A stretch of DNA of 64,000 bases from an uncultured Acidimicrobiaceae bacterium (GTDB lineage Bacteria; Actinomycetota; Acidimicrobiia; Acidimicrobiales; Palsa-688): assembly GCA_963794125.1 (NCBI GenBank), contig CAWCCW010000009.1, forward strand, positions 1,238,007 to 1,302,006, read 5' to 3'. A program made the translations under genes and the position numbers. Shown here piece after piece: positions 9,882 to 58,460 of the stretch. Below the pieces are notes generated by a model that was not told the DNA's origin, made no database searches, and saw nothing but the letters and a program-made list of their open reading frames with translations. Position 1 is the first letter of the stretch. Every line of letters starts with the position of its first letter.

Positions 9882-11669
9882 CTAAGCGTACGCCCTTGCC
9901 TGCAGCTCGAACAGTTGGGCATAAGTGCCGGCCGCCTGGATGAGCTCCCGATGGCTGCCGACCTCGAGGATACGGCCCTGGTCGACCAGCACGATCGTGT
10001 CGGCCATGCGGACGGTGGAAAGCCGGTGGGTGACAAACACGGTTATCGTGCCTCGGGCGTGGGCCGCGGCGCGCGAGGCCACCCCATAGCCTTCGAATAG
10101 CGCCGCCTCGGCGGCGGCGTCCAGGGACGCAGTCGGCTCGTCCAGGACGAACAGCAGGGGGCTCGGGCGCATCATGGCTCGGGCCAGGGCCAGCTTTTGC
10201 CACTGGCCGCCGGAGAGCTCGACGCCGCGTTCGAACTGCCGGCCCAGCTGGGAGCTGAGGCCGTCGGGCAGGAGGGCGAGGACGTCATCAGCAGTGGCCT
10301 GCGAGAACGCTCGGAGCAGGTCGGGGTCAGATCCCATCAGGGGTAGCGCGCCGCAACCAACGCTCTCCCGTGCGCTGAACTCGAAATGAGCGTGGTCTTG
10401 AAAACCGGCCGACAGACCTTCGCGCCACTCCCATGGGTCAAGTTCACCCAGGTCGGTCCCGTCGACCGTGATCCGCCCTGCGGTGGGTTCGTACATGCGG
10501 GTCAGCAGTTTGACAAGGGTGGTCTTACCCGCACCGTTCGGGCCCACCAGGGCTACAGTCGACCCGGCGGGGATGAACAGATCTACGCCCTCCAGGACGG
10601 CCCTGTCCGTGCCGGGATAGGAGAAGCCCACGCCCTCAAACCGGATGCCGGTGTCGAGCCGGGCCGGGACCGGGTGGGCCTGGGGGCGGCGGTCTTGGCT
10701 CAGGCGTGACTCTGCCAACAGCCAGTCGTAGCGCTCGGCGGTCTCCAGCCCCTGGCTCATGTCGTTCAGCACGGAGGTCGATGTGGTGATCTGGCCATTG
10801 AGCTGGGCAGCCAGGGTGATGGCCAGGACGACCTGGCCCACTGCTACGTGGTGGGCGAGGGCGTCGTGGCCGATCAGTAGCAGGGCACCAGTAAAGGCCG
10901 CGCCGAACACGGCCCACCCAGCCGTCTGGCCCAATAAGCCTCGCTTGCGGGCACGCGAAATAATGGCGTTCGAGATATCGATCTCCTGCGTGTGGCGGGC
11001 GGCGACGTGGCTTCGGCGGCCCAGGACTCGCAGTTCCCGGCCACCCGGCTCGTCCGCCCCGAGGCGGAACAAAGCACCTTGCAGCCGCCAATGCGGCATC
11101 AGCTCGTCCCACGCCTGGTAGAAGATCTTCTGCATCCGGAACGTCCCCAGGACGGCCGGCACAGAGAACACAGGCAGCAATAGCAACCGCCAGTCGATGG
11201 TGGCCAAGACCGCGAGTGTTACGGCCAGGCGGACGACTGTCCCGAGTAGTACGGCGGCCCAATCTGGCAGGCGAGCCAGGTTTTGGTGCTGCTGGCGCAG
11301 GATCTCCAGCTTGTCGAGGTACTCCACCCGCTCGAAGTGCTCGATCCCGGCGATAGAGGTAGCGGCCGCGCCGAGCTCGGTATCGAGGGCCAAGGTGGTC
11401 CGCTCGACCATCTGGTTACGCAGTACGAAGGCAACGTAAGGCCCCCCTACCGCCCACAGTGATGACACGGCCAGCACGACCACCGCAGTGGTGGCGGCAC
11501 CGGACCGTTTTTCCGTCACCGCGTCGATGGCTTCGCTCATGCCCCAGGCGAAGCTGACCACCGCCAGCTGGGACACCACCTGCATGCCCGCCGCCGCCAG
11601 CGGTCGCCACCAGCTGATGCGGAACGGGACCCGGACCAGCAGCCGGAAGGCGTGCAGCTTGGCCCTCAA
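9882..11669 (-). CDS. ABC exporter, fused permease/ATP-binding subunit
   Basis: 595 aa with an N-terminal 6-TM domain, Walker A GPNGAGKTT, signature LSGGQWQ and Walker B LFVLDEPT. Confidence 0.9.
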   Translation of the reverse strand: MRAKLHAFRLLVRVPFRISWWRPLAAAGMQVVSQLAVVSFAWGMSEAIDAVTEKRSGAATTAVVVLAVSSLWAVGGPYVAFVLRNQMVERTTLALDTELGAAATSIAGIEHFERVEYLDKLEILRQQHQNLARLPDWAAVLLGTVVRLAVTLAVLATIDWRLLLLPVFSVPAVLGTFRMQKIFYQAWDELMPHWRLQGALFRLGADEPGGRELRVLGRRSHVAARHTQEIDISNAIISRARKRGLLGQTAGWAVFGAAFTGALLLIGHDALAHHVAVGQVVLAITLAAQLNGQITTSTSVLNDMSQGLETAERYDWLLAESRLSQDRRPQAHPVPARLDTGIRFEGVGFSYPGTDRAVLEGVDLFIPAGSTVALVGPNGAGKTTLVKLLTRMYEPTAGRITVDGTDLGELDPWEWREGLSAGFQDHAHFEFSARESVGCGALPLMGSDPDLLRAFSQATADDVLALLPDGLSSQLGRQFERGVELSGGQWQKLALARAMMRPSPLLFVLDEPTASLDAAAEAALFEGYGVASRAAAHARGTITVFVTHRLSTVRMADTIVLVDQGRILEVGSHRELIQAAGTYAQLFELQARAYA

Positions 11670-26622: not shown

Positions 26623-26641
26623 TTTCGTCACTGTGACGAAA
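26623..26641. promoter_or_regulatory. 19-bp perfect palindrome TTTCGTCAC-T-GTGACGAAA (copy a)
   Basis: Read directly. It lies in the divergent intergenic region between the DJ-1/PfpI start (26512) and the LprI start (26736). Confidence 0.6.
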
Positions 26642-26735
26642 TCGGCCCGCTGCCGTGGTGATGTGGGGGAGCGGAGGCGGCGCCGGTGGGAGCGCCTGCC
26701 CATAACTGCCCACGTGGTAGATGAGAAAATAAGAC

Positions 26736-27218
26736 ATGCTCAGGTGCAAACCAATTGTCGCCGGCGCCTTCGCCGCCTTCAGTGTCTTGTTGGCTGTCGG
26801 CATGGCGCCCCCTGCCGGTGCGGCGACCACTGCCGCTGGCCCGGTACTGCCGGCCATAACCGAACAGTTCCGGCCGCTGCTGCCATGCAACCCGGACACC
26901 ACCGTCGGCCAGGAGGGGTGCGGCGAGCGGCGCGTCGTGGCCGCCGACAAGCAACTCATGAGCGACGCCAAGCTGATCTTCCAACGGCTCCACAGCACCT
27001 CGGCCCGGCGGGACTTCGTCGTCGCCCAAACCACCTGGCTGGCTTACCGGAAGGCCGACTGCCAAAGCCAGTCCGACGCCTACCAGGGCGGTACCGAACA
27101 GCCGGTGGCCTACGTCTCCTGCCTGGCCTCCGCAGACCTCGCCCGGCGTCTCGACCTAAAAGGCTTCTACGCCGTGCTCACCCGGGGCCAGGGGCCCAAC
27201 GTTCCCACCTTTCCGTGA
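26736..27218 (+). CDS. lysozyme inhibitor LprI-like (DUF1311) secreted protein
   Basis: 160 aa with a signal peptide (AGAFAAFSVLLAVGMAPPAGA) and conserved Cys pairs, including AQTTWLAYRKADCQSQSD...YVSCL. Confidence 0.75.
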   Translation: MLRCKPIVAGAFAAFSVLLAVGMAPPAGAATTAAGPVLPAITEQFRPLLPCNPDTTVGQEGCGERRVVAADKQLMSDAKLIFQRLHSTSARRDFVVAQTTWLAYRKADCQSQSDAYQGGTEQPVAYVSCLASADLARRLDLKGFYAVLTRGQGPNVPTFP

Positions 27219-27298
27219 GCTGAGGCCGCGCGACGGCGTGAGAGCGCCAAGCAGCGCCAGTAACGCCCGCAGCGCCCGCAGGTAGGTATGCACCCGCT

Positions 27299-27317
27299 TT
27301 TCGTCACTGTGACGAAA
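27299..27317. promoter_or_regulatory. 19-bp perfect palindrome TTTCGTCAC-T-GTGACGAAA (copy b)
   Basis: Read directly, about 80 nt after the LprI stop and at the edge of a stretch of about 550 bp with no convincing CDS. Confidence 0.55.
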
Positions 27318-27771
27318 TTGGCGGTCTCTGCGCCGGGTGGAGTGCTCCGGGAGGCTCCGTGGAGTGCTGCCGGCGCGGGTGCCGGCCAGGCAGCCTGGGC
27401 AGCCAGCCTGGGCGGGCAGCCTGCCGTCGGGTTCGTCGCCCCCCGGAACTTTGCGCGCCAGGATCGCGATAAGCGACGCTCCGACGCACAGGTCCCGCAC
27501 TCGCCCCCGCAAATCCGGCCGGCGCCCGCCGCTGACGCCACGTTCGGGCCACCGCTCTACCCAACGCCGACCGGGGAACGAGAAATGGGCGAGCCAGGTC
27601 ACCACCCGGCCCCGCTAGTACCGGCCCCGTAGCCCGCTAAGCGGCGACGGACTTTCCAGCCTCGGTCGTAGCCGTTCCTAGCTCAATCGCCGATAATGCC
27701 CGTTATGTAAAGTTGAGAAGGAAAAGCAGCGCTGGCCCGTAGGCAGCCACTTCGCGCCCTTCGTGTAGCCC

Positions 27772-28824
27772 TCAGTCAGACCGGGAGGCTCCAAACGCCC
27801 GCAACAATGCCTCTTTTATCCCGGCCCGGCTCGCGAACACGAGCAGGAAGGCGGCCTCCCGGCTGAGCCGCTCGGCTACGTCGCCGGCCATGGCAGACCT
27901 CGCCCCACGGTGTACGGCCAAGGCGTGGGCGGCCTGGACAGCGAACTCACTGGCCCGGGCCCGAGCCACCGGCATGGCCTCATCGCCTGCGGTGTCGAGC
28001 TCGGCTCGCCGCCGGTCCAGCTCGTCGTCCAGCGGTGAGGGCCCCAGCAAATTACAGCACCTCCTGGCCACACCGAGGGCAAACGACCCGTTTAGCCGCA
28101 ACCGCTCCGACTGGAAGCGCCCCTCTTCGTATGGCTGCACTCTGACTGCCCGCTCGCCGGGCACGAACACCCCGTCAAAGCCGAGCCGGACGGTCGCGCT
28201 GGCATTGGCCGCCGACAGGCGCAACCGTTCCACGGCCAGCCCCGGCTGAGCCCGGGCATCGACCAGGAGTGAGACAACGGTATCGTCCGGGCCCCGGGCG
28301 ACGACGAACACCAGTTCGACAACCCCCCAACCGCTGACCCATGGCGCTTCGCCCTCGAGCGTCCACCCCTCGCCCGTGGGCCGGGCGGTGAGTCGGGGCG
28401 GCCCTGGCAAAAGCCCAGTAAGGGCGACGCCGGCCTTTACCTCTCCCCGGACGGCCGGCCCCAGCCACGCGTCGCGCAATGCAGCCGGGGCCGTGGGGTC
28501 GACCATGGCACCGAGGAAACGAAAGTGCTGAGCCCAGACGAACGTGGACGCCAGGCACGCCGAAGCCAGCTCCTCCACCACCGCGCACCCCTCTGCATAC
28601 CCAAGCCCCAGCCCGCCCTTTGATACGGGTGCGAATATGCCGTACATGCCGGCGGACGCCAGGGCGTTCGTGTGGGCGGCCGGCACCATGTCCGCCGAAT
28701 CCACCGCGGCGGCGTCAGCAAAGAAAAGTGCGCTGAGATCCTTTACCTTTTCGGCTACAACTACACCCCCCTTGAGCGCCACCAAAGGATAAGAGGCCTC
28801 CTCCTCCCTTGGCGCCGCAGCCAT
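27772..28824 (-). CDS. acyl-CoA dehydrogenase family protein
   Basis: 350 aa; the N-terminal and middle segments (GMYGIFAPVSKGGLGLGYAEGCAVVEELASACLASTFVWAQH) are typical of ACAD-fold proteins. Confidence 0.7.
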   Translation of the reverse strand: MAAAPREEEASYPLVALKGGVVVAEKVKDLSALFFADAAAVDSADMVPAAHTNALASAGMYGIFAPVSKGGLGLGYAEGCAVVEELASACLASTFVWAQHFRFLGAMVDPTAPAALRDAWLGPAVRGEVKAGVALTGLLPGPPRLTARPTGEGWTLEGEAPWVSGWGVVELVFVVARGPDDTVVSLLVDARAQPGLAVERLRLSAANASATVRLGFDGVFVPGERAVRVQPYEEGRFQSERLRLNGSFALGVARRCCNLLGPSPLDDELDRRRAELDTAGDEAMPVARARASEFAVQAAHALAVHRGARSAMAGDVAERLSREAAFLLVFASRAGIKEALLRAFGASRSD

Positions 28825-28936
28825 CAGCTGCTCTCCTCGTGTCTTCTCGACGATCTCAGCACGGGCTGAGCCTAGGCAGAAATCCGGGCCAGGACTGCGG
28901 TTGGCCCACCCAGGGCCGGGCTAGGGGCGCGGGATA

Positions 28937-31589
28937 TCAGGCGATATCGTGGCGGACAGCTAGCTCGGGCGCCGGCACCCGGCGACGGTTGCGCCCGCCG
29001 ATGGTGGAAATCGTGCTCGGCCACCGGAAGTCAGTGATCCACGTCTCACACTCGGCCGCCGGCAACGGCCGGGCCAGGTAATAGCCCTGAGCGGCGTGAC
29101 AACCGAGGCTGGCCAAATGGTCGAGGGTGTCTTTGTCCTCCACGCCCTCGGCCGTTACCGTCCGGCCAAGGTTGCGGGCCAGCTCGATAGTTGAACGGAC
29201 GATGGCCGCGTCGCCTTTGTCGTGGTTCATTTCTTTGACAAAGGAGCGGTCGATTTTCAGCTCTTTGAAGGGCAGGTGCTTCAGCCGGCTGAGCGACGAA
29301 AAACCCGTGCCATAGTCGTCGATGGAAAGGTTGACGCCCAGTTCTCGCAGGTTCAGCATGGCCCGTTCCGATACCACCGGGTCCGCCATCATCGATGACT
29401 CGGTCAGTTCCAAGGTGAGGGCCGCGGGCTCCAACCCGGACCGCGCCAACGACGTCTCCACTCGTTCCGAAACCTTGGGGCTGGTGAGGCTCCGGGCGGA
29501 CAGGTTGACCGCCACGCTCAAGTGGGGCAGGGACTCACGCCACGACGCCAGCTGGGCCAAAGCCTGGTCGAGCACCCACCACGTCAGAGGGTCGATCAGC
29601 CCGGCGCTTTCGGCCACCGGGATGAACTCGACCGGCGCGATCGGCCCGAACTGGTCGTGGCTCCAGCGCAGCAGCGCCTCACAGCCAAGGACTTCACCGG
29701 TGGCCAGCTTCACCACCGGTTGGTACCAAACTTCCAGCGCTTCCTTATCGATGGCGCGGCGCAGCTCAGTGGCCAGAGTCAGGCGGCGCAGGGTCGAGTG
29801 GTCTTCTGCAGGGTCGTAGAAACGCACGCCCCCGCCCGAGGCTTTGGCCAGGTACATCGCGACGTCCGCGTGGCGCATGAGATTGGTGGCGTCGCGCTCG
29901 GTGCCCGCGCTCCGGGGCGATGGCGACCCCGATACTGGCGCGGACGTCGAGCAAAAGCCCTTCGACCGCTAACGGCCTCGTCACCGTGCTCAGGAGCTGG
30001 TCGGCGGTCGTCTCGACGTCGAGGTCGTCCTCTGCTCCCGCCAAGAGCAGTGCGAACTCGTCGCCGCCGAGCCGGGCCACCAGGTTGTCGCGGCTCGAAA
30101 ATGGGGCCAAGCGATTGGCTACCTCGCGGAGGAAAGCATCGCCCGTCACGTGCCCGAGGGTGTCGTTCACCTCTTTAAACCCGTCAAGGTCGATAAACAT
30201 CGTGGCCACTGTGCCTGGCGCCGATGCCGTCAATGTGGTGGCCAGGCGCTCGGTGAACATCGCCCGGTTGGGTAAGCCCGTCAATGTGTCGTGGTAGGCC
30301 TGGTGCTGGCGCACCGCTACTTCCCGCCGAAGCCGTTCCAGCAGTTCGCTGCTACGCAGAGCCACTCCGGCGTTCGCCGCCAGGGTCTCGAAGAAGCGCA
30401 GGTCGGCCGGCTTGAAGCCCTCATGCTGGAAACCTCGGTCTGCCACCAGGAGGTAGCCAGCGCCCGGCTCCTCCCGTTGGAGGGGGGCGATGAGCGCCTC
30501 GGTCAGGCCCCGCTCTTTCATGGCCCCCGCCACGATGGGGTCCTCCGACCGCGCTGCGCCCAGGAGCGCCCCCCGCTCCCCTACGAGTAGGTCAAGACGG
30601 GAAAGGAGCACCCCGTCTTCGAAATGAGGAGCTCCGTCTCCCTCCAGAGTGCACCGCAGAGCCAGGCGTTCAAGCGGCTCCTCCAGGGGGATTACGAGCT
30701 GGGCGCGCCCCGCTGAAAGCAGCGCCCGTGACTCCTCGAGCACTCGGGCCATGAGCTGGCGACCCTCCGTAGGGCTGCTCACGTGACGCGTAAAGTCGTA
30801 CAGCTTCTCCAAGTTGGCGTAGCGCTGCCCGGAAGTGACGGTGGCCCGATAGGCGAAGTTAGTGGCCACCGCTATAGCCATGAACAACGCAATGCCCCAC
30901 GTGTTCACCCACACCAGGGAAATTGCCACCAGCGCACCCGCCGTACAAACCGCTATGTACACCCCGGCCTGGACGGATACCCGAACTAATGGGACGCGGC
31001 GGACGCGCCGCTCCACCACGGCCATCACGACTATCACCAGCACCAGTTCGAGGACCGCGATAAGCGCAACGGTCCCCACGGTGACCAACCAGCCGTGGGT
31101 GCCCACAGGGGACGCCCGGCCCAGCCAGCGGTAATAGACGAGTATGCCGGCACCCACGGAGGCGGCATAGACGACCGACTGGATGAGCATCTTGGTCCAC
31201 GGACGTCGCTGATGAATGTTCGCAGCCAGGTAACCGCACGACACCGCGCCCAAAGCGAACCCCGGCCGGAGGAACACGATGCCCACCAGGACCGGGATTT
31301 CGGACAGGCCAATCGAGACGCTGGCCTTTCGGTTCCGGATCCTTACGGGATGGGCGTCGCTCGCCCATACCCCTAGGGCCACCAGGGGCAACAAGCCCAA
31401 CCGGTCCCCGCCAGCGGCCTTGATCCCGGCCAACCTTTCCACGTAGAGGAACGCCACGGCAGCCGCGAAGACGCTGACCGCTACCAGCGCACGCAGGCGC
31501 GAACTGTCGCTTCTCTGGGCGGCCGGTTTGGCGCGCTGGGCAGGTTCCGGGCTCAAAAGTGGCCTTTCGCGGTCACGAGAAATCTTCAC
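28937..31589 (-). CDS. membrane-bound GAF-GGDEF-EAL signalling protein, frame-disrupted
   Basis: ORF 29766..31589 has multiple TM helices, a GAF-like region and the GGDEF motif (RLGGDEFALLL). ORF 28937..29878 has the end of GGDEF (RHADVAMYLAK) and the EAL domain (GCEALLRW). The frames join at about 29900-29906. Confidence 0.85.
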
Positions 31590-31650
31590 CCTGGGTGTCG
31601 GACGGCCCGTCCGCGGGGTAAAGCCGAACTGGGCCTATGAGCCGCGCGAG

Positions 31651-31668
31651 TCGCTCTGAGTGACGAAA
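31651..31668. promoter_or_regulatory. half-site of the palindrome family (GTGACGAAA plus shared ATTGGCG extension)
   Basis: GTGACGAAATTGGCG at 31660-31674 is identical to the right side of copy b. The left arm is degenerate. It lies about 70 nt upstream of the GGDEF-EAL start. Confidence 0.4.
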
Positions 31669-31899
31669 TTGGCGCGCATAGTCGAATATCGGGCAAACTC
31701 GGTAGTGTGCGAAACCGCGGGGAGACGCCCAGCTCTTGCGATGCGGTCTGGCCGGGTGGCGGCCCCCGGCTACGTGCACCTTTAGGGCCGTCATTGCCCT
31801 CCGCACTGCCAGAGAAAGGGGGCGAACACATGTTGCGCACGTTCACCCTCGACTGAACCGTTCCCACCCCCGGTGGTTGAAATATCGCATCACCAGCGT

Positions 31900-31918
31900 C
31901 GGCCCCCGTCGGGGGCCG
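31900..31918 (+). terminator. GC-rich stem-loop in a long 5' intergenic region
   Basis: cggccccc-gtc-gggggccg, an 8-bp stem. It lies about 45 nt after an 8-codon mini-ORF (31830..31856) and 185 nt before the next start. Confidence 0.35.
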
Positions 31919-32103
31919 GCTGTGATCGGTGGGCGCAGGTGCCGTGGCGGGCCGGCAGTATCCCCGTAACACATGGCGGGCCCTACTAGCGTTTGGCGTT
32001 GAAGCGCGCCCTTAACCGCGTAGCTTCCGGCTGCTCACCGTAGGTGCCAGGCTGCTACATTCTTTGCCGACGCAGACCGCCACAGGTTCGCAAAGGAGCC
32101 CAA

Positions 32104-32298
32104 ATGCACAATGCCCTCCTTCTGGCCAGCATCAGCAAGCACACCATTGGAGGCATCGTCTTTGTGGTGATAGCCGTTGCGTTGCTTGCCTGGGGGGCTG
32201 TGAAGATCGCGGCCAAGGCGGCTGGCGCGGTCCTGTGGCCTCTCCTTGGCGTCATTGCCATAATCATCGCCATCCTTCTGTTCACGAGGGCCGTATAA
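32104..32298 (+). CDS. small two-TM membrane protein
   Basis: ATG at 32104 preceded by aaaggag. 64 aa with two hydrophobic helices (IGGIVFVVIAVALLAWGAV, VLWPLLGVIAIIIAILLF). Confidence 0.55.
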   Translation: MHNALLLASISKHTIGGIVFVVIAVALLAWGAVKIAAKAAGAVLWPLLGVIAIIIAILLFTRAV

Positions 32299-32327
32299 GG
32301 CCTGCCGAGGCGGTCTGTCCACGGCTT

Positions 32328-32348
32328 CGCGGCTCAGCCTGAGCCGCG
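32328..32348 (+). terminator. stem-loop after the small membrane protein gene
   Basis: Perfect 9-bp stem cgcggctca / tgagccgcg with a 3-nt loop, 30 nt after the stop. Confidence 0.5.
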
Positions 32349-32477
32349 AGCCGGCTCACACTGAGCCCCCGTGTGAGGTTCGTTTTGGCCGCCCACTAGC
32401 GTTCGCAGGGGGCTCGGCATCCGATGGATGCCGGCCGGCCAGGCACCCTAGAAACAACGAAAGCGAGGCACGCCCAC

Positions 32478-33755
32478 ATGTCGTACGAAGTCACCTCAGT
32501 CCACGCTCGTGAGATCCTGGACTCACGCGCCCGGCCCACCCTGGAAGTCTCTCTTCGGCTCGGTTCTGGTGTGGAGGCGGCGGCCGGCGTGCCATCGGGC
32601 GCCTCCACCGGCACCCGCGAGGCCGTAGAGCTGCGGGACGGGGACCCGAAACGGTTCAAAGGGGCCGGCGTCACCAAGGCCGTGGCCAACGTGAACGGCG
32701 AGATCAACCAGTTGCTCACAGGCCGCTCGTGGAAGAACCTGGAGGAGCTCGACCAGGCCGTGATCGACCTGGACGGGACGGAAAACAAGAGCCGTCTGGG
32801 GGCCAACGCCACCGTCGGTGTCTCGATGGCGGCCGCGCGGGCGATGGCGGCTGCGGATGGCCAGCCGCTATACCGCTGGTTGGCGCCGGACCAAAGCCTG
32901 CTCCGCCTCCCGGTGCCCAATTTCAACGTCGTCAACGGCGGCGCCCACGCCCAGAACAAACTCGAGTTCCAGGAGTTCATGCTTTCTCCGCTCGGCGCGC
33001 CCAGCTTCGGCGAAGCCTTGCGCGCCGGGTCGGAGGTCTACCTGGCGCTACGGGCCCTGCTGCACGCCAAGGGGCATTCGACGGGTTTAGGGGACGAGGG
33101 CGGCTTTGCTCCCAACCTCGCAACCCCTGAGGAGGTCCTCGACCTGCTGCTGGAAGCCATCGCCGCGGCGGGCTACACGCCGGGCCGTGACGGCATCGCC
33201 ATCGCTTTGGACCCGGCCTCATCGGAGATGCGCGAACCCGGAGGTGAGTACCGCTATTCAGACGTCACCCGCCTTACGACGGACGAAATGATCGCCAAGT
33301 ACCAAGCCTTGACCGACGCCTACCCGATATGGTCGATCGAAGACGGCCTGGGCGAGGACGACTGGCAGGGCTGGGAGAAATTGACAGCTCAGTTAGGCGA
33401 TCATGTCCAATTGGTGGGCGACGACATTTTCGTGACCAACCCGGCCATAATCCGCGAAGCGATCAGCAAGAAAGTCGGCAATTCGGCCCTCATAAAGGTC
33501 AACCAGATCGGCACGATCAGCGAGACGCTCCAGGCCATCGCCGTTTGCCGGGCCGCCGGGTACACCCAGTTCGTCTCCCACCGCTCGGGTGAGACGGTCG
33601 ACACGTTCATCGCCGACCTCGCTGTGGCCAGCGGCTGCGGGCAGATCAAAACAGGCGCCCCCGCTCGCGGCGAACGCGTGGCCAAGTACAACCGGCTGTC
33701 CGCGATCGAGGCCGAGGTCCCGACGTTGCCCTACGGGCTGGCCCAACGCAACTAG
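32478..33755 (+). CDS. eno: enolase (phosphopyruvate hydratase)
   Basis: MSYEVTSVHAREILDSRARPTLEV..SGASTGTREAVELRDG..SHRSGETVDTFIADLAV are canonical enolase motifs. ATG at 32478. Confidence 0.95.
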   Translation: MSYEVTSVHAREILDSRARPTLEVSLRLGSGVEAAAGVPSGASTGTREAVELRDGDPKRFKGAGVTKAVANVNGEINQLLTGRSWKNLEELDQAVIDLDGTENKSRLGANATVGVSMAAARAMAAADGQPLYRWLAPDQSLLRLPVPNFNVVNGGAHAQNKLEFQEFMLSPLGAPSFGEALRAGSEVYLALRALLHAKGHSTGLGDEGGFAPNLATPEEVLDLLLEAIAAAGYTPGRDGIAIALDPASSEMREPGGEYRYSDVTRLTTDEMIAKYQALTDAYPIWSIEDGLGEDDWQGWEKLTAQLGDHVQLVGDDIFVTNPAIIREAISKKVGNSALIKVNQIGTISETLQAIAVCRAAGYTQFVSHRSGETVDTFIADLAVASGCGQIKTGAPARGERVAKYNRLSAIEAEVPTLPYGLAQRN

Positions 33756-33762
33756 CGGCGGC

Positions 33763-34109
33763 TCAGGCCGCTCCCCCCCTCAAGCGCTCGCTGGCTCCGA
33801 CCAGCGGGCGGGCGGCCTCGAGCAGCCAGCCGAGGCTGCGGGAGAGCTGCTCGAGGGAACCGTCGAGGGCCAGGTCGTTCTCGACGTCCTCTATCGCGCA
33901 CGTGAGCACAAAGAGCAGGTCGTCCAGGCCTTCCATCGACTTGCGGGCAACGATCAGATCCGATTCCGCCAACCCCAGTTCACGCGCCCGCTTGCGCGCT
34001 TCGAAGTCCCTTTGGCGGCAGCTCCTTCGGCAGTACCTGCGCGGCCTGCCCGCCCCCGGCCCTGGTCGATAGGCTTACCGCACCATGCGCAGGCTGGGTA
34101 TTTCGTCAC
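33763..34109 (-). CDS. small Zn-ribbon protein, frame-disrupted; start codon lies inside palindrome copy d
   Basis: Frame X from GTG 34109 reads VTKYPACAWCGKPIDQGRG. Frame Y (ORF 33763..33972 extended) reads RPRRYCRRSCRQRDFEARKRARELGLAESD.... Adding one base to the C5 run at 34053-34057 joins them into a CxxC...CxxxC protein. Confidence 0.45.
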
Positions 34110-34119
34110 TGTGACAAAA
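34101..34119. promoter_or_regulatory. palindrome family copy d (TTTCGTCAC-T-GTGACAAAA, one mismatch)
   Basis: Read directly. It lies between the divergent Zn-ribbon gene and the conserved 660-aa gene, with AT-rich taataactaa adjacent. Confidence 0.55.
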
Positions 34120-34146
34120 CACTAATAACTAACTCCTCCACTCTGT

Positions 34147-36157
34147 GTGATTTGCACTGGGGCTGCGAAGTTGTACGTTGGTGCCGTGGCCCGCCGTATC
34201 GAGATCGAGCTAACAAGCGCGCGGCCTGACGGTACCTGGACGTGGCGTGCCGCGGGCGCGCTCAACCCGCGGGGGACCCTGGACGGTTCCCTGCTCTACG
34301 AGGCGGCCAAGGCTGGAGATGTGGTACGGGCCGAAGCGGAGTTCGGTATCGAAGGGATAACGGTCGTCGCAGTGGAGCCTCCTCGTCCAACTGAGACGAC
34401 GGATCCCAACCGGATCGAGTTGATCGAACGGCCGACGACGGCTGGGGTTACCACTCAATTGACCGGCGGTCGAGGGCGGCCAGGACCGGACGGCGGGCCC
34501 GACAGGCGGCGCGGCGACCAGGGCGGCGGCCAGCGCCGGGGGCGACCGTCACAACGACCGACGCCCACGGGGGCCGGTGGAGGCTCCGACCAGTCTGACT
34601 CGAACGGCAACGGCAGAGGCGCTCGTGACGGGCACGGTGATTCGGCTCTGGGGCCCACGGCGCCCGAACGGACCGCCCGGCCCGTCCCGACCGTCCCACG
34701 AGACAACCACGGGCGACGGCCGGTCCTGGACGGGGCGGCGCCCGCACCCAGGGCCCAGGTGGCCGCGAAGCCAACGGCGGCCCACGAGCTGACCGAGAGG
34801 GCAGTGCCCGGCCGGACGGTGACCAAGGCGGCCAACGACGCCAACCCGCTCCGCGCCAAAAGCGGCTCAGCCCAGGTAACGCGCACCGCAATGCCATGCT
34901 CGAAAGCCTGCCGGCGGAGCAACAGCCCATTGCCCAGCAACTCCTGCGCGGGGGCATCCCAGCGGTGCGGACGGCTCTCCATTTTGACGCGAGCGCGCCC
35001 GGGAAGAGGGCCGCCCGGAACCCAGCACGGAGGGCGTCCTGGCCCTGGCCGAGTCGCTGGTCTCCCGGGTGAAGGCGGCCGAATGGCGCGACCGGGCCGA
35101 GGCGGCCATCAAGCTGGGGGACGACCTCGCGATGCGTGACTTACGTTCACTGGTCAGCGGCTCGGATGCGGCCCGAGACGAAGCGTCGCGGGACCTGGTC
35201 GTCACCTTGCGGGAAATGCTCGAGCGCCGGATCGAGGCCCACCGGACGGCCTGGTCTGACGATGTGACCAAAAACCTCGACGAACAGCACGTCGTGCGCG
35301 CCCTCCGCCTGTCCAGCCGACCCCCCGACCCCGCGGCCCGCTTCTCCGCCGAGTTGGCGAGCCGCCTTCGGGACGCCGCCAGCACCGCCCTCTCCCCCGC
35401 CACGCCCGAGGCCCAATGGCTCGCCGTCCTCCAAGCGGTTGTCGAAAGCCCGGTCCGGCGGACGGTCAAACCGGAGGGACTACCGGCCAACCCGAGCCCC
35501 GAGTTGCTCGAGACGGCCCGCCAGCACTGCGGCCGGGTCCCCGCCCTCGCGCCGCTACTCGGCATCAGCGTGCCGCCCCCTCCTGGCCCAGTCCGGCCAA
35601 ACGTGCCGACGAAGGCGCCCTCTCGCGGACGGGCTCGCACCGGTCGGCCGGCACGGCGTACAGCGGCGGTACCGGCGCCCCCGACCCGTGCCGAACAGCC
35701 CGCCCAAGAGCCGGTGCCCGCCGAAGAGCCGGCGACCGCCGAAGAGCCGGCGACCGAACCTCAGGCTGCCGTCGAGCCGGAGCCTGCAGCCGAAGCGGTC
35801 ACGCCGCTTACGGTGGTTGAGCAGGCACCCGAAGCCCCAGTGCCCGAAGTTGCGGCGCCCGAAGTTCCGGTGTCCGAAACCGAAGCGCCCGAGCCTCAGG
35901 CCGCCGTCGACCCGGAGCCCGAAGCCGAAGCGGTCACGCCGCCCACGGTGGTTGCGCAGGCACCCGAAGCCGCAGTGCCCGAAGCCGCCGTGCCCGAAGC
36001 CGCGGTGCCCGAAGCTGCGGTGCCTGAAGCAGAGGCAGCAGCAGGGCCTTCTCCTGGCCCCGAGGAGCCGTTGGCCCTCGACGAAGGGGCACCCGAAGGC
36101 CTGCCCGCCACGGAGGTCACTTCAGGGGCCGGTGCATCACTAGCAAACGAGCCGTAA
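34147..36157 (+). CDS. conserved actinobacterial protein with R/G-rich linker and P/E/A-rich repeat tail, frame-disrupted at least twice
   Basis: N-terminus VARRIEIELTSARPDGTWTWRAAGA (likely GTG 34186). The middle, KRLSPGNAHRNAMLESLPAEQQPIAQQLLRGGIPAVRTALHF, is in a second frame. From 34988 (RERAREEGRPEPSTEGVLALAESLVSRVKAAEWRDRAE...) it is in a third frame, ORF 35069..36157. Confidence 0.6.
35756..36034 (+). repeat. in-frame tandem repeats: 135-nt duplication plus 15-nt unit x5 (PEAAV)n
   Basis: About 95 nt starting at 35756 recur, near-identical, from 35891 (135-nt offset). The unit GTGCCCGAAGCCGCN appears x5 at 35960-36034. Confidence 0.8.
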
Positions 36158-56610: not shown

Positions 56611-58460
56611 TTGAACTCGGCATCGCCACCCCGTTCGACCGCGCCACCACCGGGTTCGGCGGCGCGCCTGAAGCGGGGCGGGGCCACGGTGGCCGTGGCG
56701 GCTGCCTACTTGGTGGCCGCCTATGCCATGTACGGCCGCCTTCGACCATTGGACCGCGCCCACCTACCCACTTGCACCTGCGGTGACATCGTGAACCAGG
56801 TCTGGTTCTTGGCCCTTGCCCTTCGCATGGTGGGGCACGGTCAATTATCGTTGTGGACCAACCTGCTCAATTATCCGGTGGGCATCAACGCGGCGGACAA
56901 TGCCAGTTTCCCGCTGCTTGGGTTCGGTGTCAGCCCTATTACGGCTTGGCTGGGCCCCGTCGCCGCCTTTGCGCTGCTGGTCCGGCTGAGCTTCTTCCTC
57001 TCAGCGTTGTCCTGCTTTTTGGTATTAAAGCGACTGGTCCGTTCCCGAATTGCGGCCGCCTTAGGAGGGATCCTCTATGGGTTCTCGCCGTACATGGCTC
57101 ATCAGGGTGCCTCTCATATGTTCCTGATATTCGCGCCGCTCCCGCCCGTGTTGTTTTTTCTCGTGTACCGTCTCTTCGTCACGAGACTCGTCCATGATAA
57201 TTTTAGGACCGGCCTTTTACTGGGAGCTCTTATCAGTGCTCAATATCTGATAAGTAGCGAAATAGCGGTTTCCTTTGTCCTCATGACCGGCCTCACGTTG
57301 GCTTGGTTCGGCGTTCGCGCCCTCTACCGGTACCGGTCGTTGGTTGACGGGGCCCGCGTGGCGGCGACCGTGCTGGGCGGGGCGGTGCTGGTAGCCGTGC
57401 CGCTCCTGGCCTACCCGGCATGGGACGCCCTGGCCGGGCGCCAGCACGTGGCCGGCCCCACCCAATCGGTTTCGTCACCGGGCATCGAGGTGCTGTCCGC
57501 CGTGTTCCCGGTCGACCGCTTCGTCCTGGCCGGCCTGTGGCGACCGTGGAGGGTACCCCCGGTCGCCCTTCTCGGTGACACCGGCTATATCGGGGTTCCC
57601 CTCCTCATAGTCCTCATTTACATCTCCGTGCGCTACCGGAGGCGGGCTTTGGTGAGAGGAGCGACGGTGCTGGGCGTCATTTCCTGGGCTCTGGCGTTGG
57701 GCCCCGCCTGGCCCTCTCCGACCACACCACGAACATCCCGCTCCCCTTCGCCCTCCTCACCCACATCCCCGTGGTGCAGGACCTCGTCCCGAGCCGCCTG
57801 ACGCTCTACACCTACCTCGCCGTAGCGGTGCTCCTGTCCGTCGGGTTGGACGAATTGTTGGCCCGCGCTCTCCCCGCTCGCTTGTGGGCCACCGGCCTCG
57901 CCGTAGGCACGGTGCTCGGGTCGGTGGCGCTTATGGCTCCCGATACGACATACCCGGTGACGGGCTTGGCCGGAGCGCAGGTGTTCTCTGAATTGGCGGT
58001 GGCCCGCCAGATACCGCGTGGCGGTGTAGTGCTCGCCTACCCGTACCCTGTCTTCCCCGACGACCAGGCCATGCTGTGGCAGGCCCTCAGCAATATGCGC
58101 TTCTCGCTCGTCGGAGGGTACGTAGTCCGCCCATTACCCGACGGCAGCGGCACCAAAGTGCCTCCGCTCCTGTTCCCGTCCGCCGTGCCCTCTTTCTTGC
58201 TCGAAGCTTGGTCCGGGCCGGTTCCAAGCGCCCAACTGGCATCCTTTGAGGACGCAAAATCCCAGCTGCGAGAGTTCGCGGCCCGGTACGACATCTCCAC
58301 TGTGGTCGCACAAGCGGCGGGGCGTCGTCCCAGTCAAGTGGTCGCCATGGTATCGAGCGTCTACGGGCGCCCAGTGCACAGAGGAGACATCGATTTTTGG
58401 TTCAACATCAGGCGTGGGACGCGCCTCGAACACAGAGAACGTCTGGCCCTGGCTGGATAG
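56611..58460 (+). CDS. large polytopic membrane protein (glycosyltransferase-like topology), frame-disrupted
   Basis: ORF 56611..57801 has many TM helices. ORF 57771..58460 continues (..HTTNIPLPFALLTHIPVVQDLVPSRL in-frame upstream of its start). Adding one C to the C4 run at 57702-57705 joins them. Function not recognised. Confidence 0.6.

Follow-up and report, generated by a model that had tools for sequence, protein, structure and literature searches.

What does a short palindrome do when it recurs in the intergenic DNA of one bacterial locus, and what might recognize it? The question is raised by a stretch of 64,000 nucleotides (hereafter the window) from an uncultured Acidimicrobiaceae bacterium (GenBank assembly GCA_963794125.1, contig CAWCCW010000009.1, positions 1,238,007 to 1,302,006), in which a pattern scan finds a perfect 9-1-9 dyad, TTTCGTCACTGTGACGAAA, at 26623-26641 and 27299-27317 (copies 1 and 2) and a version with one mismatch, GTGACAAAA, at 34101-34119 (copy 3). 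A preliminary description of this DNA, made from the letters alone, had placed all three at exactly these positions. They are the only matches in 64 kb at up to three mismatches, compared with 0.01 expected by chance per window, and none of 100 shuffled sequences contained three. Recurrence of the dyad is thus non-random, as the preliminary description had argued and as would be expected of an autoregulatory site.

The half-site GTGACGAAA is also overrepresented, with seven occurrences in the window versus 0.33 expected. One of these, at 57470, is coding-looking and lies within a long open reading frame (ORF). Another, at 31660-31668, had been counted as a fourth copy of the palindrome, and it does have the 15-mer GTGACGAAATTGGCG in common with position 27309. 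Because this element has no left half, and because the closest relative (L094, see below) reads GTGGCGAAA there in DNA that is evenly conserved (87% identity throughout the surrounding region), we do not count it: a functional copy is unlikely, and the element is probably not a footprint. Its distance from the GGDEF gene start at 31589 (71 nt), like that of copy 2 from the LprI stop at 27218 (81 nt), is as previously given. The claim that all copies lie outside coding sequences holds less well, as copy 3 is partly coding: within it, a GTG at 34109 on the minus strand starts a small zinc-ribbon (Zn-ribbon) gene.

To place the palindrome in a wider context, we compared the window with syntenic loci from uncultured Acidimicrobiaceae metagenome-assembled genomes (MAGs; L094, L055, L077, L111, L073, and L062; 70-85% identity), identified by BLAST against the loci of the scan described below. 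In five to six of these relatives, copies 1 and 2 stand out as islands of near-identity within diverged, indel-rich intergenic DNA. The position of copy 1 is kept in L094, L055, L077, L111, and L073 despite diverged flanks; copy 2 is kept in L094, L055, and L077 and, with two mismatches, in L111. The pair also brackets the LprI gene in L094, L055, L077, and L062, with spacings of 679, 760, 668, and 448 bp, respectively. Alignment thereby bears out the positional conservation in orthologous intergenic regions that the preliminary description had raised. The sequences flanking the copies are unrelated to each other and are not repeated. These observations support a palindrome that behaves as a protein-recognized dyad rather than as a chance sequence or a mobile repeat.

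The window contains a second conserved element, absent from the preliminary description: a dif-like site for the recombinases XerC and XerD (XerCD) at 27686-27713. Its 28-bp architecture, two arms of about 11 bp around a 6-bp spacer, matches the phylum consensus (AACGCCGATAATCCACGTTATGTCAAGT, over 54 dif-like sites), and 23 of 28 positions are identical to the published Frankia dif, CACGCCGATAATGCACATTATGTCAAGT (PMC3025954). The site is the single match in the 64-kb window at up to three mismatches, with no second dif-like site found. It is 100% identical across L077, L055, L111, L062, and L094, and the 32-38-nt block containing it (27682-27719) is 100% identical in all aligned relatives. We also tried this block as a tRNA or transfer-messenger RNA, without a match, and assign it to dif; Rfam at gathering threshold returned no match on the window. 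The XerC and XerD arms were assigned by similarity to E. coli dif. Summed G-C skew is +70 over 1-28 kb, where the signal is noisy, and -877 over 28-64 kb, which puts the single copy at the skew switch. Since the dif-type site and the change in skew coincide, we conclude that the window spans the replication terminus and that 27686-27713 is a predicted dif-type XerCD site. The roughly 370 bp from copy 2 to dif are not conserved in sequence and hold no conserved ORF in the lineage of the window.

Is the proximity of palindrome and dif peculiar to this lineage? We scanned one genome per species for the exact dyad, inspected the resulting loci (at least 120) as 8-kb tiles, and sought a dif-like site within 1.5 kb of the palindrome. 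Among the loci listed, 79 carry actinobacterial titles. A dif-like site lies within 1.5 kb in 59 of them, five more have the Zn-ribbon gene at the dyad, and a further five are cut by the tile edge. Among the taxa with dif-linked dyads are Acidimicrobiia, Nocardia, Rhodococcus, Mycobacterium, Mycolicibacterium, Amycolatopsis, Prauserella, and Corynebacterium. Where a dyad lies no more than 1.5 kb from dif (74 cases), it is on the XerC-arm side in 66 and 230-420 bp from the dif center in 54, with a few at 40-60 bp. Copy 2 falls in this typical class. The gap between palindrome and dif is non-coding in Nocardia, Rhodococcus, Mycobacterium, and Mycolicibacterium. A dyad also stands beside a dif-like site on L045, a record titled as a 351-kb Mycolicibacterium plasmid, in a module with no relative in PLSDB. 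Judging from these loci, the dyad is a conserved element that goes together with dif and prefers one side of it and one range of distances.

The exact 19-mer also occurs in 28 of the listed loci (L006, L011, L013, and 25 others) within Nfu/NifU genes of Rhodobacteraceae, other Alphaproteobacteria, and a few other organisms, where it encodes FVTVTK in the Nfu_N domain; we regard this as a coincidence. In Corynebacteriales, a coding reading of the modules with orphan dyads (those not at a Zn-ribbon gene), from the palindrome GTG toward dif, stops within a few codons and was rejected.

The association also appears when dif is the starting point. In a reverse scan of metagenomes with the pattern CGCCGATAA-N6-TTATGTCAA, the dyad or a variant was present in about 17 of 100 loci with enough flank, at -44 to -480 in all but one (-1293); no dyad was found on the other side of dif among these roughly 100 loci. 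The variants include TTACGTCACCGTGACGTAA, an 8-0-8 form (TTTCGTCATGACGAAA), and an 8-4-8 form. In DNA not ascertained by the dyad, the 217 kb within 1.5 kb of dif contain nine near-matches and the 377 kb elsewhere only one, the window's own Zn-ribbon gene site at 34101. Given this concentration at dif, the dyad is neither dispersed nor a broad regulon motif. Orphan copies near dif carry a TAn prefix in only 5 of 84 flanks, and hence do not look like promoters. The clustering of copies in the window within a span of 7.5 kb is therefore better explained by the dif site at 27686-27713 than by shared regulation of the adjacent genes, and the dyad is, by its placement, a terminus element in a minority of lineages. 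An enrichment analysis of k-mers around dif likewise recovers the palindrome core on the XerC side, together with an unexplained GGTGGCGA on the other side. Within 600 bp of dif on the XerD-arm side, the 8-mers GGTGGCGA and ATCGCCAC are enriched (20 versus 3 and 12 versus 0 loci, respectively, among L121-L240), which may reflect a conserved neighboring gene.

Some Nocardia modules (L005, L010, L069, L101, and others) have extra conserved blocks in the ~300-bp gap between palindrome and dif, namely GGGGAAGTGGAGGGGGAGTG and an inverted repeat, ATTCATC...GTCATGAAT. A Rhodococcus locus (L042, 4943-5030, minus strand) contains a ZMP/ZTP riboswitch (RF01750, 53.6 bits) that is unrelated to the element studied here.

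The same data bear on whether the palindrome is a short dispersed or mobile repeat, such as a repetitive extragenic palindromic (REP) element, a miniature inverted-repeat transposable element (MITE), or the remnant of an element integrated at dif. Xer-dependent elements use dif as an integration site, several copies lie within 7.5 kb, and pairs of copies bracket one small gene (LprI here; the Zn-ribbon gene in L007, L080, and L097). A mobile origin, which the preliminary description had offered as its alternative in the form of a very short dispersed repeat, is nevertheless largely refuted and in our view very improbable: there is no further copy in 64 kb and no second dif-like site in the window, the flanks are not repeated, and positions are kept among relatives of only 70-85% identity. 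The many genome-wide copies within a longer repeat unit that characterize REP elements and MITEs were not seen in the DNA covered here. Matches on viral contigs number only seven, without consistent context; phage relatives of the Zn-ribbon protein are limited to the zinc-ribbon part; and a check for phage or mobile origin with PADLOC gave no match.

If the dyad is recognized by a protein, the most obvious candidate is encoded at copy 3. Clustering of ORFs near dyads yields, as the largest family, a Zn-ribbon protein of about 110 amino acids at 31 loci including the window, and the suggestion in the preliminary description that this adjacent protein be tried as a candidate regulator fits the comparative data. 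In 31 of the 32 loci with both gene and dyad, the start codon lies in the dyad and in frame, the exception being the frameshifted copy in the window. The dyad is read in frame as FVTVTK in every case, with the GTG of the right half-site as the first in-frame start, and gene callers place the protein starts at MTK or VTK. A TAnnnT hexamer ends 6-10 nt (mostly 7 nt) upstream of the start in 30 of 31 orthologous starts. This is the architecture of leaderless actinobacterial genes, in which TAnnnT precedes the start codon by about 7 nt. A sigma-70 promoter scan of 26.3-34.4 kb gave no match. In one large clade, then, the dyad lies at the start of the Zn-ribbon gene, where it overlaps the promoter (with the transcription start predicted) and the beginning of what may be its own regulator's gene, and we consider copy 3 a putative auto-operator. 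Variant forms of dyad and protein also go together, as the 8-0-8 dyad TTTCGTCATGACGAAA, with a central ATG start, accompanies the protein subfamily FCSQRCRQWDW; a 9-0-9 form was also found.

A search starting from the protein leads back to dif. In each of the five Acidimicrobiia loci found in this way, both a dif-like site and a dyad (or a variant of it) turn up within 1.5 kb; the dyad is 235-362 bp from dif whether the gene lies in the gap, lies outside it, or points away. In several Actinomycetes (L022, L033, L084, L150, L168, and L210) the order is Zn-ribbon gene, dyad, about 300 bp of non-coding DNA, and dif. In Rhodococcus and Mycolicibacterium (L248, L249, and L251; gene at 10001-10340) the Zn-ribbon gene is divergent from rbpA (PF13397) and lies beside lnt/ppm1-like genes; an lnt-like gene is also found upstream of it in the Acidimicrobiia locus L256. 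By synteny with rbpA and lnt/ppm1, the M. tuberculosis ortholog is presumably Rv2049c. Papers that mention Rv2049c are, by their titles and abstracts, not about it, and a literature search for MSMEG_3857 found nothing. At another locus, L053, a perfectly palindromic dif-like sequence, TTTGCGGATAATACAGATTATCCGCAA (~2523-2550), lies about 300 bp after the Zn-ribbon gene, and an ordinary dif was not found there.

Neither Pfam nor NCBIfam offers a model for the Zn-ribbon protein, and sequence comparison with the PDB gives no relative. We retrieved 936 and 638 homologs, all labeled 'hypothetical' or 'FCS-type domain-containing'; the family comprises 279 clusters of 50% identity at E <= 1e-10, with the consensus xRCRWCGRx(6)GPGRPRxYCRxSCRQRDYEARxRxxExGLxExELVxTRxELDxLxDRLYVLEAAVEDVxRDL.... 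An AlphaFold (AF2) model with a predicted local distance difference test (pLDDT) score of 90 shows a zinc ribbon built from two beta-hairpins; residues 29-45 form a helix rich in Arg, and residues 49-104 a long hairpin of helices. Foldseek found nothing significant in the PDB (best E=0.9; YacG at a probability of only 0.38), and the closest non-significant matches overall are YacG, TRASH, zf-FCS, and MYND. The C-x2-C...(F/Y)C-x3-C spacing is common to the Zn-ribbon protein and to YacG, TRASH, and FCS-type ribbons. YacG, however, binds GyrB rather than DNA, and the C-terminal helical hairpin is specific to the Zn-ribbon family. No helix-turn-helix (HTH), ribbon-helix-helix (RHH), or other known DNA-binding domain was recognized in the protein by these comparisons.

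We hold with moderate confidence that the palindrome is the recognition site of the Zn-ribbon protein, which would autoregulate its own gene there and act on dif elsewhere. The palindrome, with its core CGTCAC-N-GTGACG and A/T-rich ends, would be recognized by a protein in which a zinc ribbon of FCS/TRASH-like type is combined with an Arg-rich helix and a helical hairpin. Where the gene of this protein begins, the site would cover approximately -10 to +9 of a leaderless promoter: TAnnnT lies 7 nt upstream, and the right half-site opens with the GTG start. Binding there would therefore silence transcription of the gene. Such an arrangement resembles that of leaderless, self-repressed actinobacterial regulators, which likewise have TAnnnT about 7 nt upstream of an A/GTG start and a dyad over the start. 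It differs from them in that the Zn-ribbon protein has no recognized HTH or RHH and most other copies of the dyad are not at promoters.

These last points bear on a plainer explanation, in essence that of the preliminary description with a regulator now named: the protein is a conventional transcription factor that represses its own gene and a small local regulon (DJ-1 and LprI), and proximity to dif is inherited gene order without mechanistic meaning. In its favor are the strong geometry of the auto-operator, the placement of copy 1 some 95-110 bp upstream of two divergent genes, which is kept in six genomes, and the position of the Zn-ribbon gene, which abuts dif in Acidimicrobiia, where sites would follow the gene, and is far from dif in some Mycobacteriales. 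Yet orphan palindromes keep their 230-420 bp to dif with no intervening Zn-ribbon gene or coding sequence in Nocardia, Rhodococcus, Mycobacterium, the window, L257, and L260. Orphan copies also lack -10 prefixes (copy 1 has no TAn prefix on either side), many are downstream of convergent genes, as are copy 2 and the copy in L101, and almost none lie away from dif in unascertained DNA. We consider a local regulon unlikely. Of the operator proposed in the preliminary description, the protein-recognized dyad is supported, as a conserved island in six relatives; the regulon of neighboring genes (DJ-1, LprI, GGDEF-EAL, and the 660-aa gene) is not supported, and we take the DJ-1, LprI, and GGDEF genes to be bystanders that happen to sit at the terminus.

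How, then, might the Zn-ribbon protein act on dif? Orphan copies lie beside dif, typically on its XerC-arm side and at a distance of 230-420 bp (those of the window are 27299 at -392 and 26623 at -1068), and protein bound there could build a nucleoprotein complex acting on dif. Its likeliest role would be accessory or architectural, to control or assist XerCD synapsis as accessory sequences do at cer and psi, with oligomerization of the protein bridging the two dif regions of a chromosome dimer. We favor this role because the element is on the same side as in cer and psi, because its distance is kept over non-coding, unconserved DNA, and because a plasmid-titled record has the module. As at cer (ColE1; ArgR/PepA) and psi (pSC101; ArcA/PepA), the palindrome is on the XerC-arm side of the Xer core (in 66 of 74 cases), only some sites have the element, and the DNA between element and core is unconserved. 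In contrast to those systems, the element here is a single 19-bp dyad at 230-420 bp (at 40-60 bp in a minority) and occurs on chromosomes, where FtsK is thought to control recombination; the candidate Zn-ribbon protein is unrelated to ArgR, ArcA, or PepA.

A less likely role for protein bound at these sites would be as a tag that, in the manner of MatP or ZapT, brings the dif region to the septum. MatP-matS of Enterobacteria and ZapT of Caulobacter also pair a small protein, with DNA-binding and helical oligomerization parts, with palindromic sites around dif. The Zn-ribbon protein, however, has no MatP or MerR domain (the other genes of the window were only partly screened for these), and the half-sites of the palindrome (GTCAC-N-GTGAC; GTCAC-T-GTGAC in the window) face the opposite way from those of matS, GTGACRNYGTCAC. 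In the available DNA, the sites near dif (up to about 1.5 kb away) number one to three, unlike the tens of matS sites spread over a macrodomain. By-eye comparison with known operators gave no fit, as matS, parS (TGTTTCACGTGAAACA), and CRP/GlxR (TGTGA-N6-TCACA) all differ in half-site order or spacing.

Location at the skew switch beside dif would also suit a replication-fork barrier, with the Zn-ribbon protein as an actinobacterial terminator protein and the palindrome as its Ter site. The parallel with tus/TerB of E. coli and rtp/IR-I of B. subtilis extends to a gene that adjoins its own site, which overlaps its promoter, and we know of no Tus or RTP homolog in Actinobacteria. Ter sites are asymmetric and polar and are arranged in opposed groups, whereas the palindrome is a perfect dyad with no built-in polarity; 66 of 74 copies are on one side of dif and so form no trap, and one stands beside the dif-like site of the plasmid-titled record L045. 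With no homology to either system as well, we judge a fork barrier improbable.

Several observations weigh against a protein that binds the dyad and acts on dif. Ten of the 79 actinobacterial palindromes have no dif in their 8-kb tile, and only about 15-20% of dif sites of the type scanned have a palindrome, so Xer recombination does not require the dyad in general. The Zn-ribbon gene of M. tusciae, M. brumae, and one Rhodococcus lies by rbpA with neither dif nor palindrome within 10 kb, and in Acidimicrobiia part of the proximity to dif could simply reflect where the gene is located. Zinc ribbons of the FCS type often have protein or RNA, not double-stranded DNA, as their ligand. The accessory DNA of cer and psi spans about 160-180 bp and is contiguous, and the distance of the palindrome is longer. 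That the protein binds the dyad and represses itself, and that orphan copies act on dif, we infer from a pairing that is wholly comparative. The spacing of the half-sites varies (8-0-8, 9-0-9, 9-1-9, and 8-4-8), which would be unusual for one rigid dimer on double-stranded DNA. Finally, the arms of the palindrome extend perfectly by at least 3 bp in 25 of 96 copies, compared with about 1.5 expected, and by at least 13 bp in nine; in Nocardia they reach 24-27 bp, with folding energies of -50 kcal/mol. Such long, perfect hairpins point to a structural role.

This role could be that of a protein-free hairpin or cruciform, either an insulator or terminator shielding dif from read-through or a replication-termination structure, its long arms arising by template switching. 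The 1-nt spacer does not rule out a hairpin, contrary to the preliminary description, since the dyad can pair into a stem of 8 bp closed by a loop of 3 nt (-11 to -23 kcal/mol, flanks included). Beyond the extended arms and the variable central spacing, such a structure would suit the several copies just after the stop of the last gene before dif (L101, L033, L007, L258, and copy 2). A mere hairpin would not, however, need the 18-nt core that is kept across two actinobacterial classes, and it leaves unexplained why, in one protein family, the start codon and -10 element keep a constant position relative to the dyad. Arms are unextended in 44 of 96 copies. No T run follows any copy in the window, and none was recovered in a scan for intrinsic terminators. 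The copies belong to no Rfam family: at an E-value threshold, Rfam matched eight modules only with spurious microRNA hairpins on long palindromes. A purely structural explanation seems to us rather improbable.

Table 1. Features of the window discussed in the text (positions are those of the 64-kb stretch)
Feature	Position	Strand	Remarks
Palindrome copy 1	26623..26641		Perfect 9-1-9; between divergent DJ-1/PfpI and LprI genes; 1068 bp from dif, center to center, XerC-arm side
LprI-family gene	26736..27218	+	Pfam PF07007, E=6e-11; bracketed by copies 1 and 2; genomic context
Palindrome copy 2	27299..27317		Perfect; after LprI stop; 392 bp from dif, center to center, XerC-arm side
Predicted dif-like XerCD site	27686..27713	+	ATCGCCGATAA-TGCCCG-TTATGTAAAGT; XerC-type arm, 6-bp spacer, XerD-type arm
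Isolated right half-site	31660..31668	+	GTGACGAAA; left half absent
Small Zn-ribbon (CxxC...YCRRSCRQR) and helical protein gene	33763..34109	-	1-nt frameshift after CAWCGKPIDQ; two frames, MTKYPACAWCGKPIDQ / GPGAGRPRRYCRRSCRQRDFEARKRARELGL...
Palindrome copy 3	34101..34119		One mismatch; overlaps Zn-ribbon start codon and probable transcription start; 6410 bp from dif, XerD-arm side
-10-like hexamer	34119..34124	-	TAGTGT; ends 9 nt upstream of Zn-ribbon GTG start
Conserved ~660-aa protein gene, unknown family	34147..36157	+	Frameshifted; divergent from Zn-ribbon gene across palindrome; no Pfam match

The neighborhood of the element offers some further observations (Table 1). Frameshifts split the GAF-GGDEF-EAL gene (28937-31589), the Zn-ribbon gene, and the 660-aa gene; three such genes suggest a (long-read) assembly error rather than decay, and the relatives are 'MFD' MAGs. 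Orthologs of the ~660-aa protein adjoin the Zn-ribbon gene in L017, L031, L061, L065, L074, and L090, and a protein of this type, ~660-930 aa in length, is encoded divergently from the Zn-ribbon gene at seven loci. In the window and in L065 (3942-6737, minus strand), it begins with a beta domain (RIxxELTSxRxDGTWxWRAAGA), continues through an Arg-rich linker and a helical domain, and ends in a long tail rich in Pro, Ala, and Glu. From the GGDEF gene start to the enolase gene (31590-32400), about 800 bp lack a credible ORF. An aligned stretch at 31562-31800 is about 87% identical to L094, with coding-like conservation and no Rfam match.

We rate the palindrome and its candidate protein as non-homologous to the known proteins that bind the terminus or Xer sites and to the sites of those proteins. 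To our knowledge, no terminus-specific DNA-binding protein or chromosomal Xer accessory factor is known in Actinobacteria. Our literature search, which covered sources other than subscription-only papers, found no prior description of the sequence, of an actinobacterial dif/Xer accessory element, of a terminus protein, or of the mycobacterial orthologs. We tentatively propose that many Actinobacteria (Acidimicrobiia and several Mycobacteriales and Pseudonocardiales) may have a dedicated dif-accessory system, in which a zinc-ribbon and helical protein on a dyad about 300 bp from the XerC arm would control dimer resolution, as a topological filter or an activator, or would couple the dif region to division, its level being self-set by the dyad on a leaderless promoter.

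The phylum concerned includes Mycobacterium, Nocardia, Rhodococcus, and Corynebacterium, and the proposal is testable: the cis element is sharply defined, the candidate protein family comprises some 280 clusters of 50% identity, and there are cultivable hosts (Rhodococcus baikonurensis, Nocardia spp., Mycolicibacterium novocastrense, and a Corynebacterium sp.). If true, it would reveal a means by which the dif region is marked or controlled in these bacteria and would add a new DNA-binding fold. In practical terms, the palindrome can flag the replication terminus in unannotated actinobacterial contigs.

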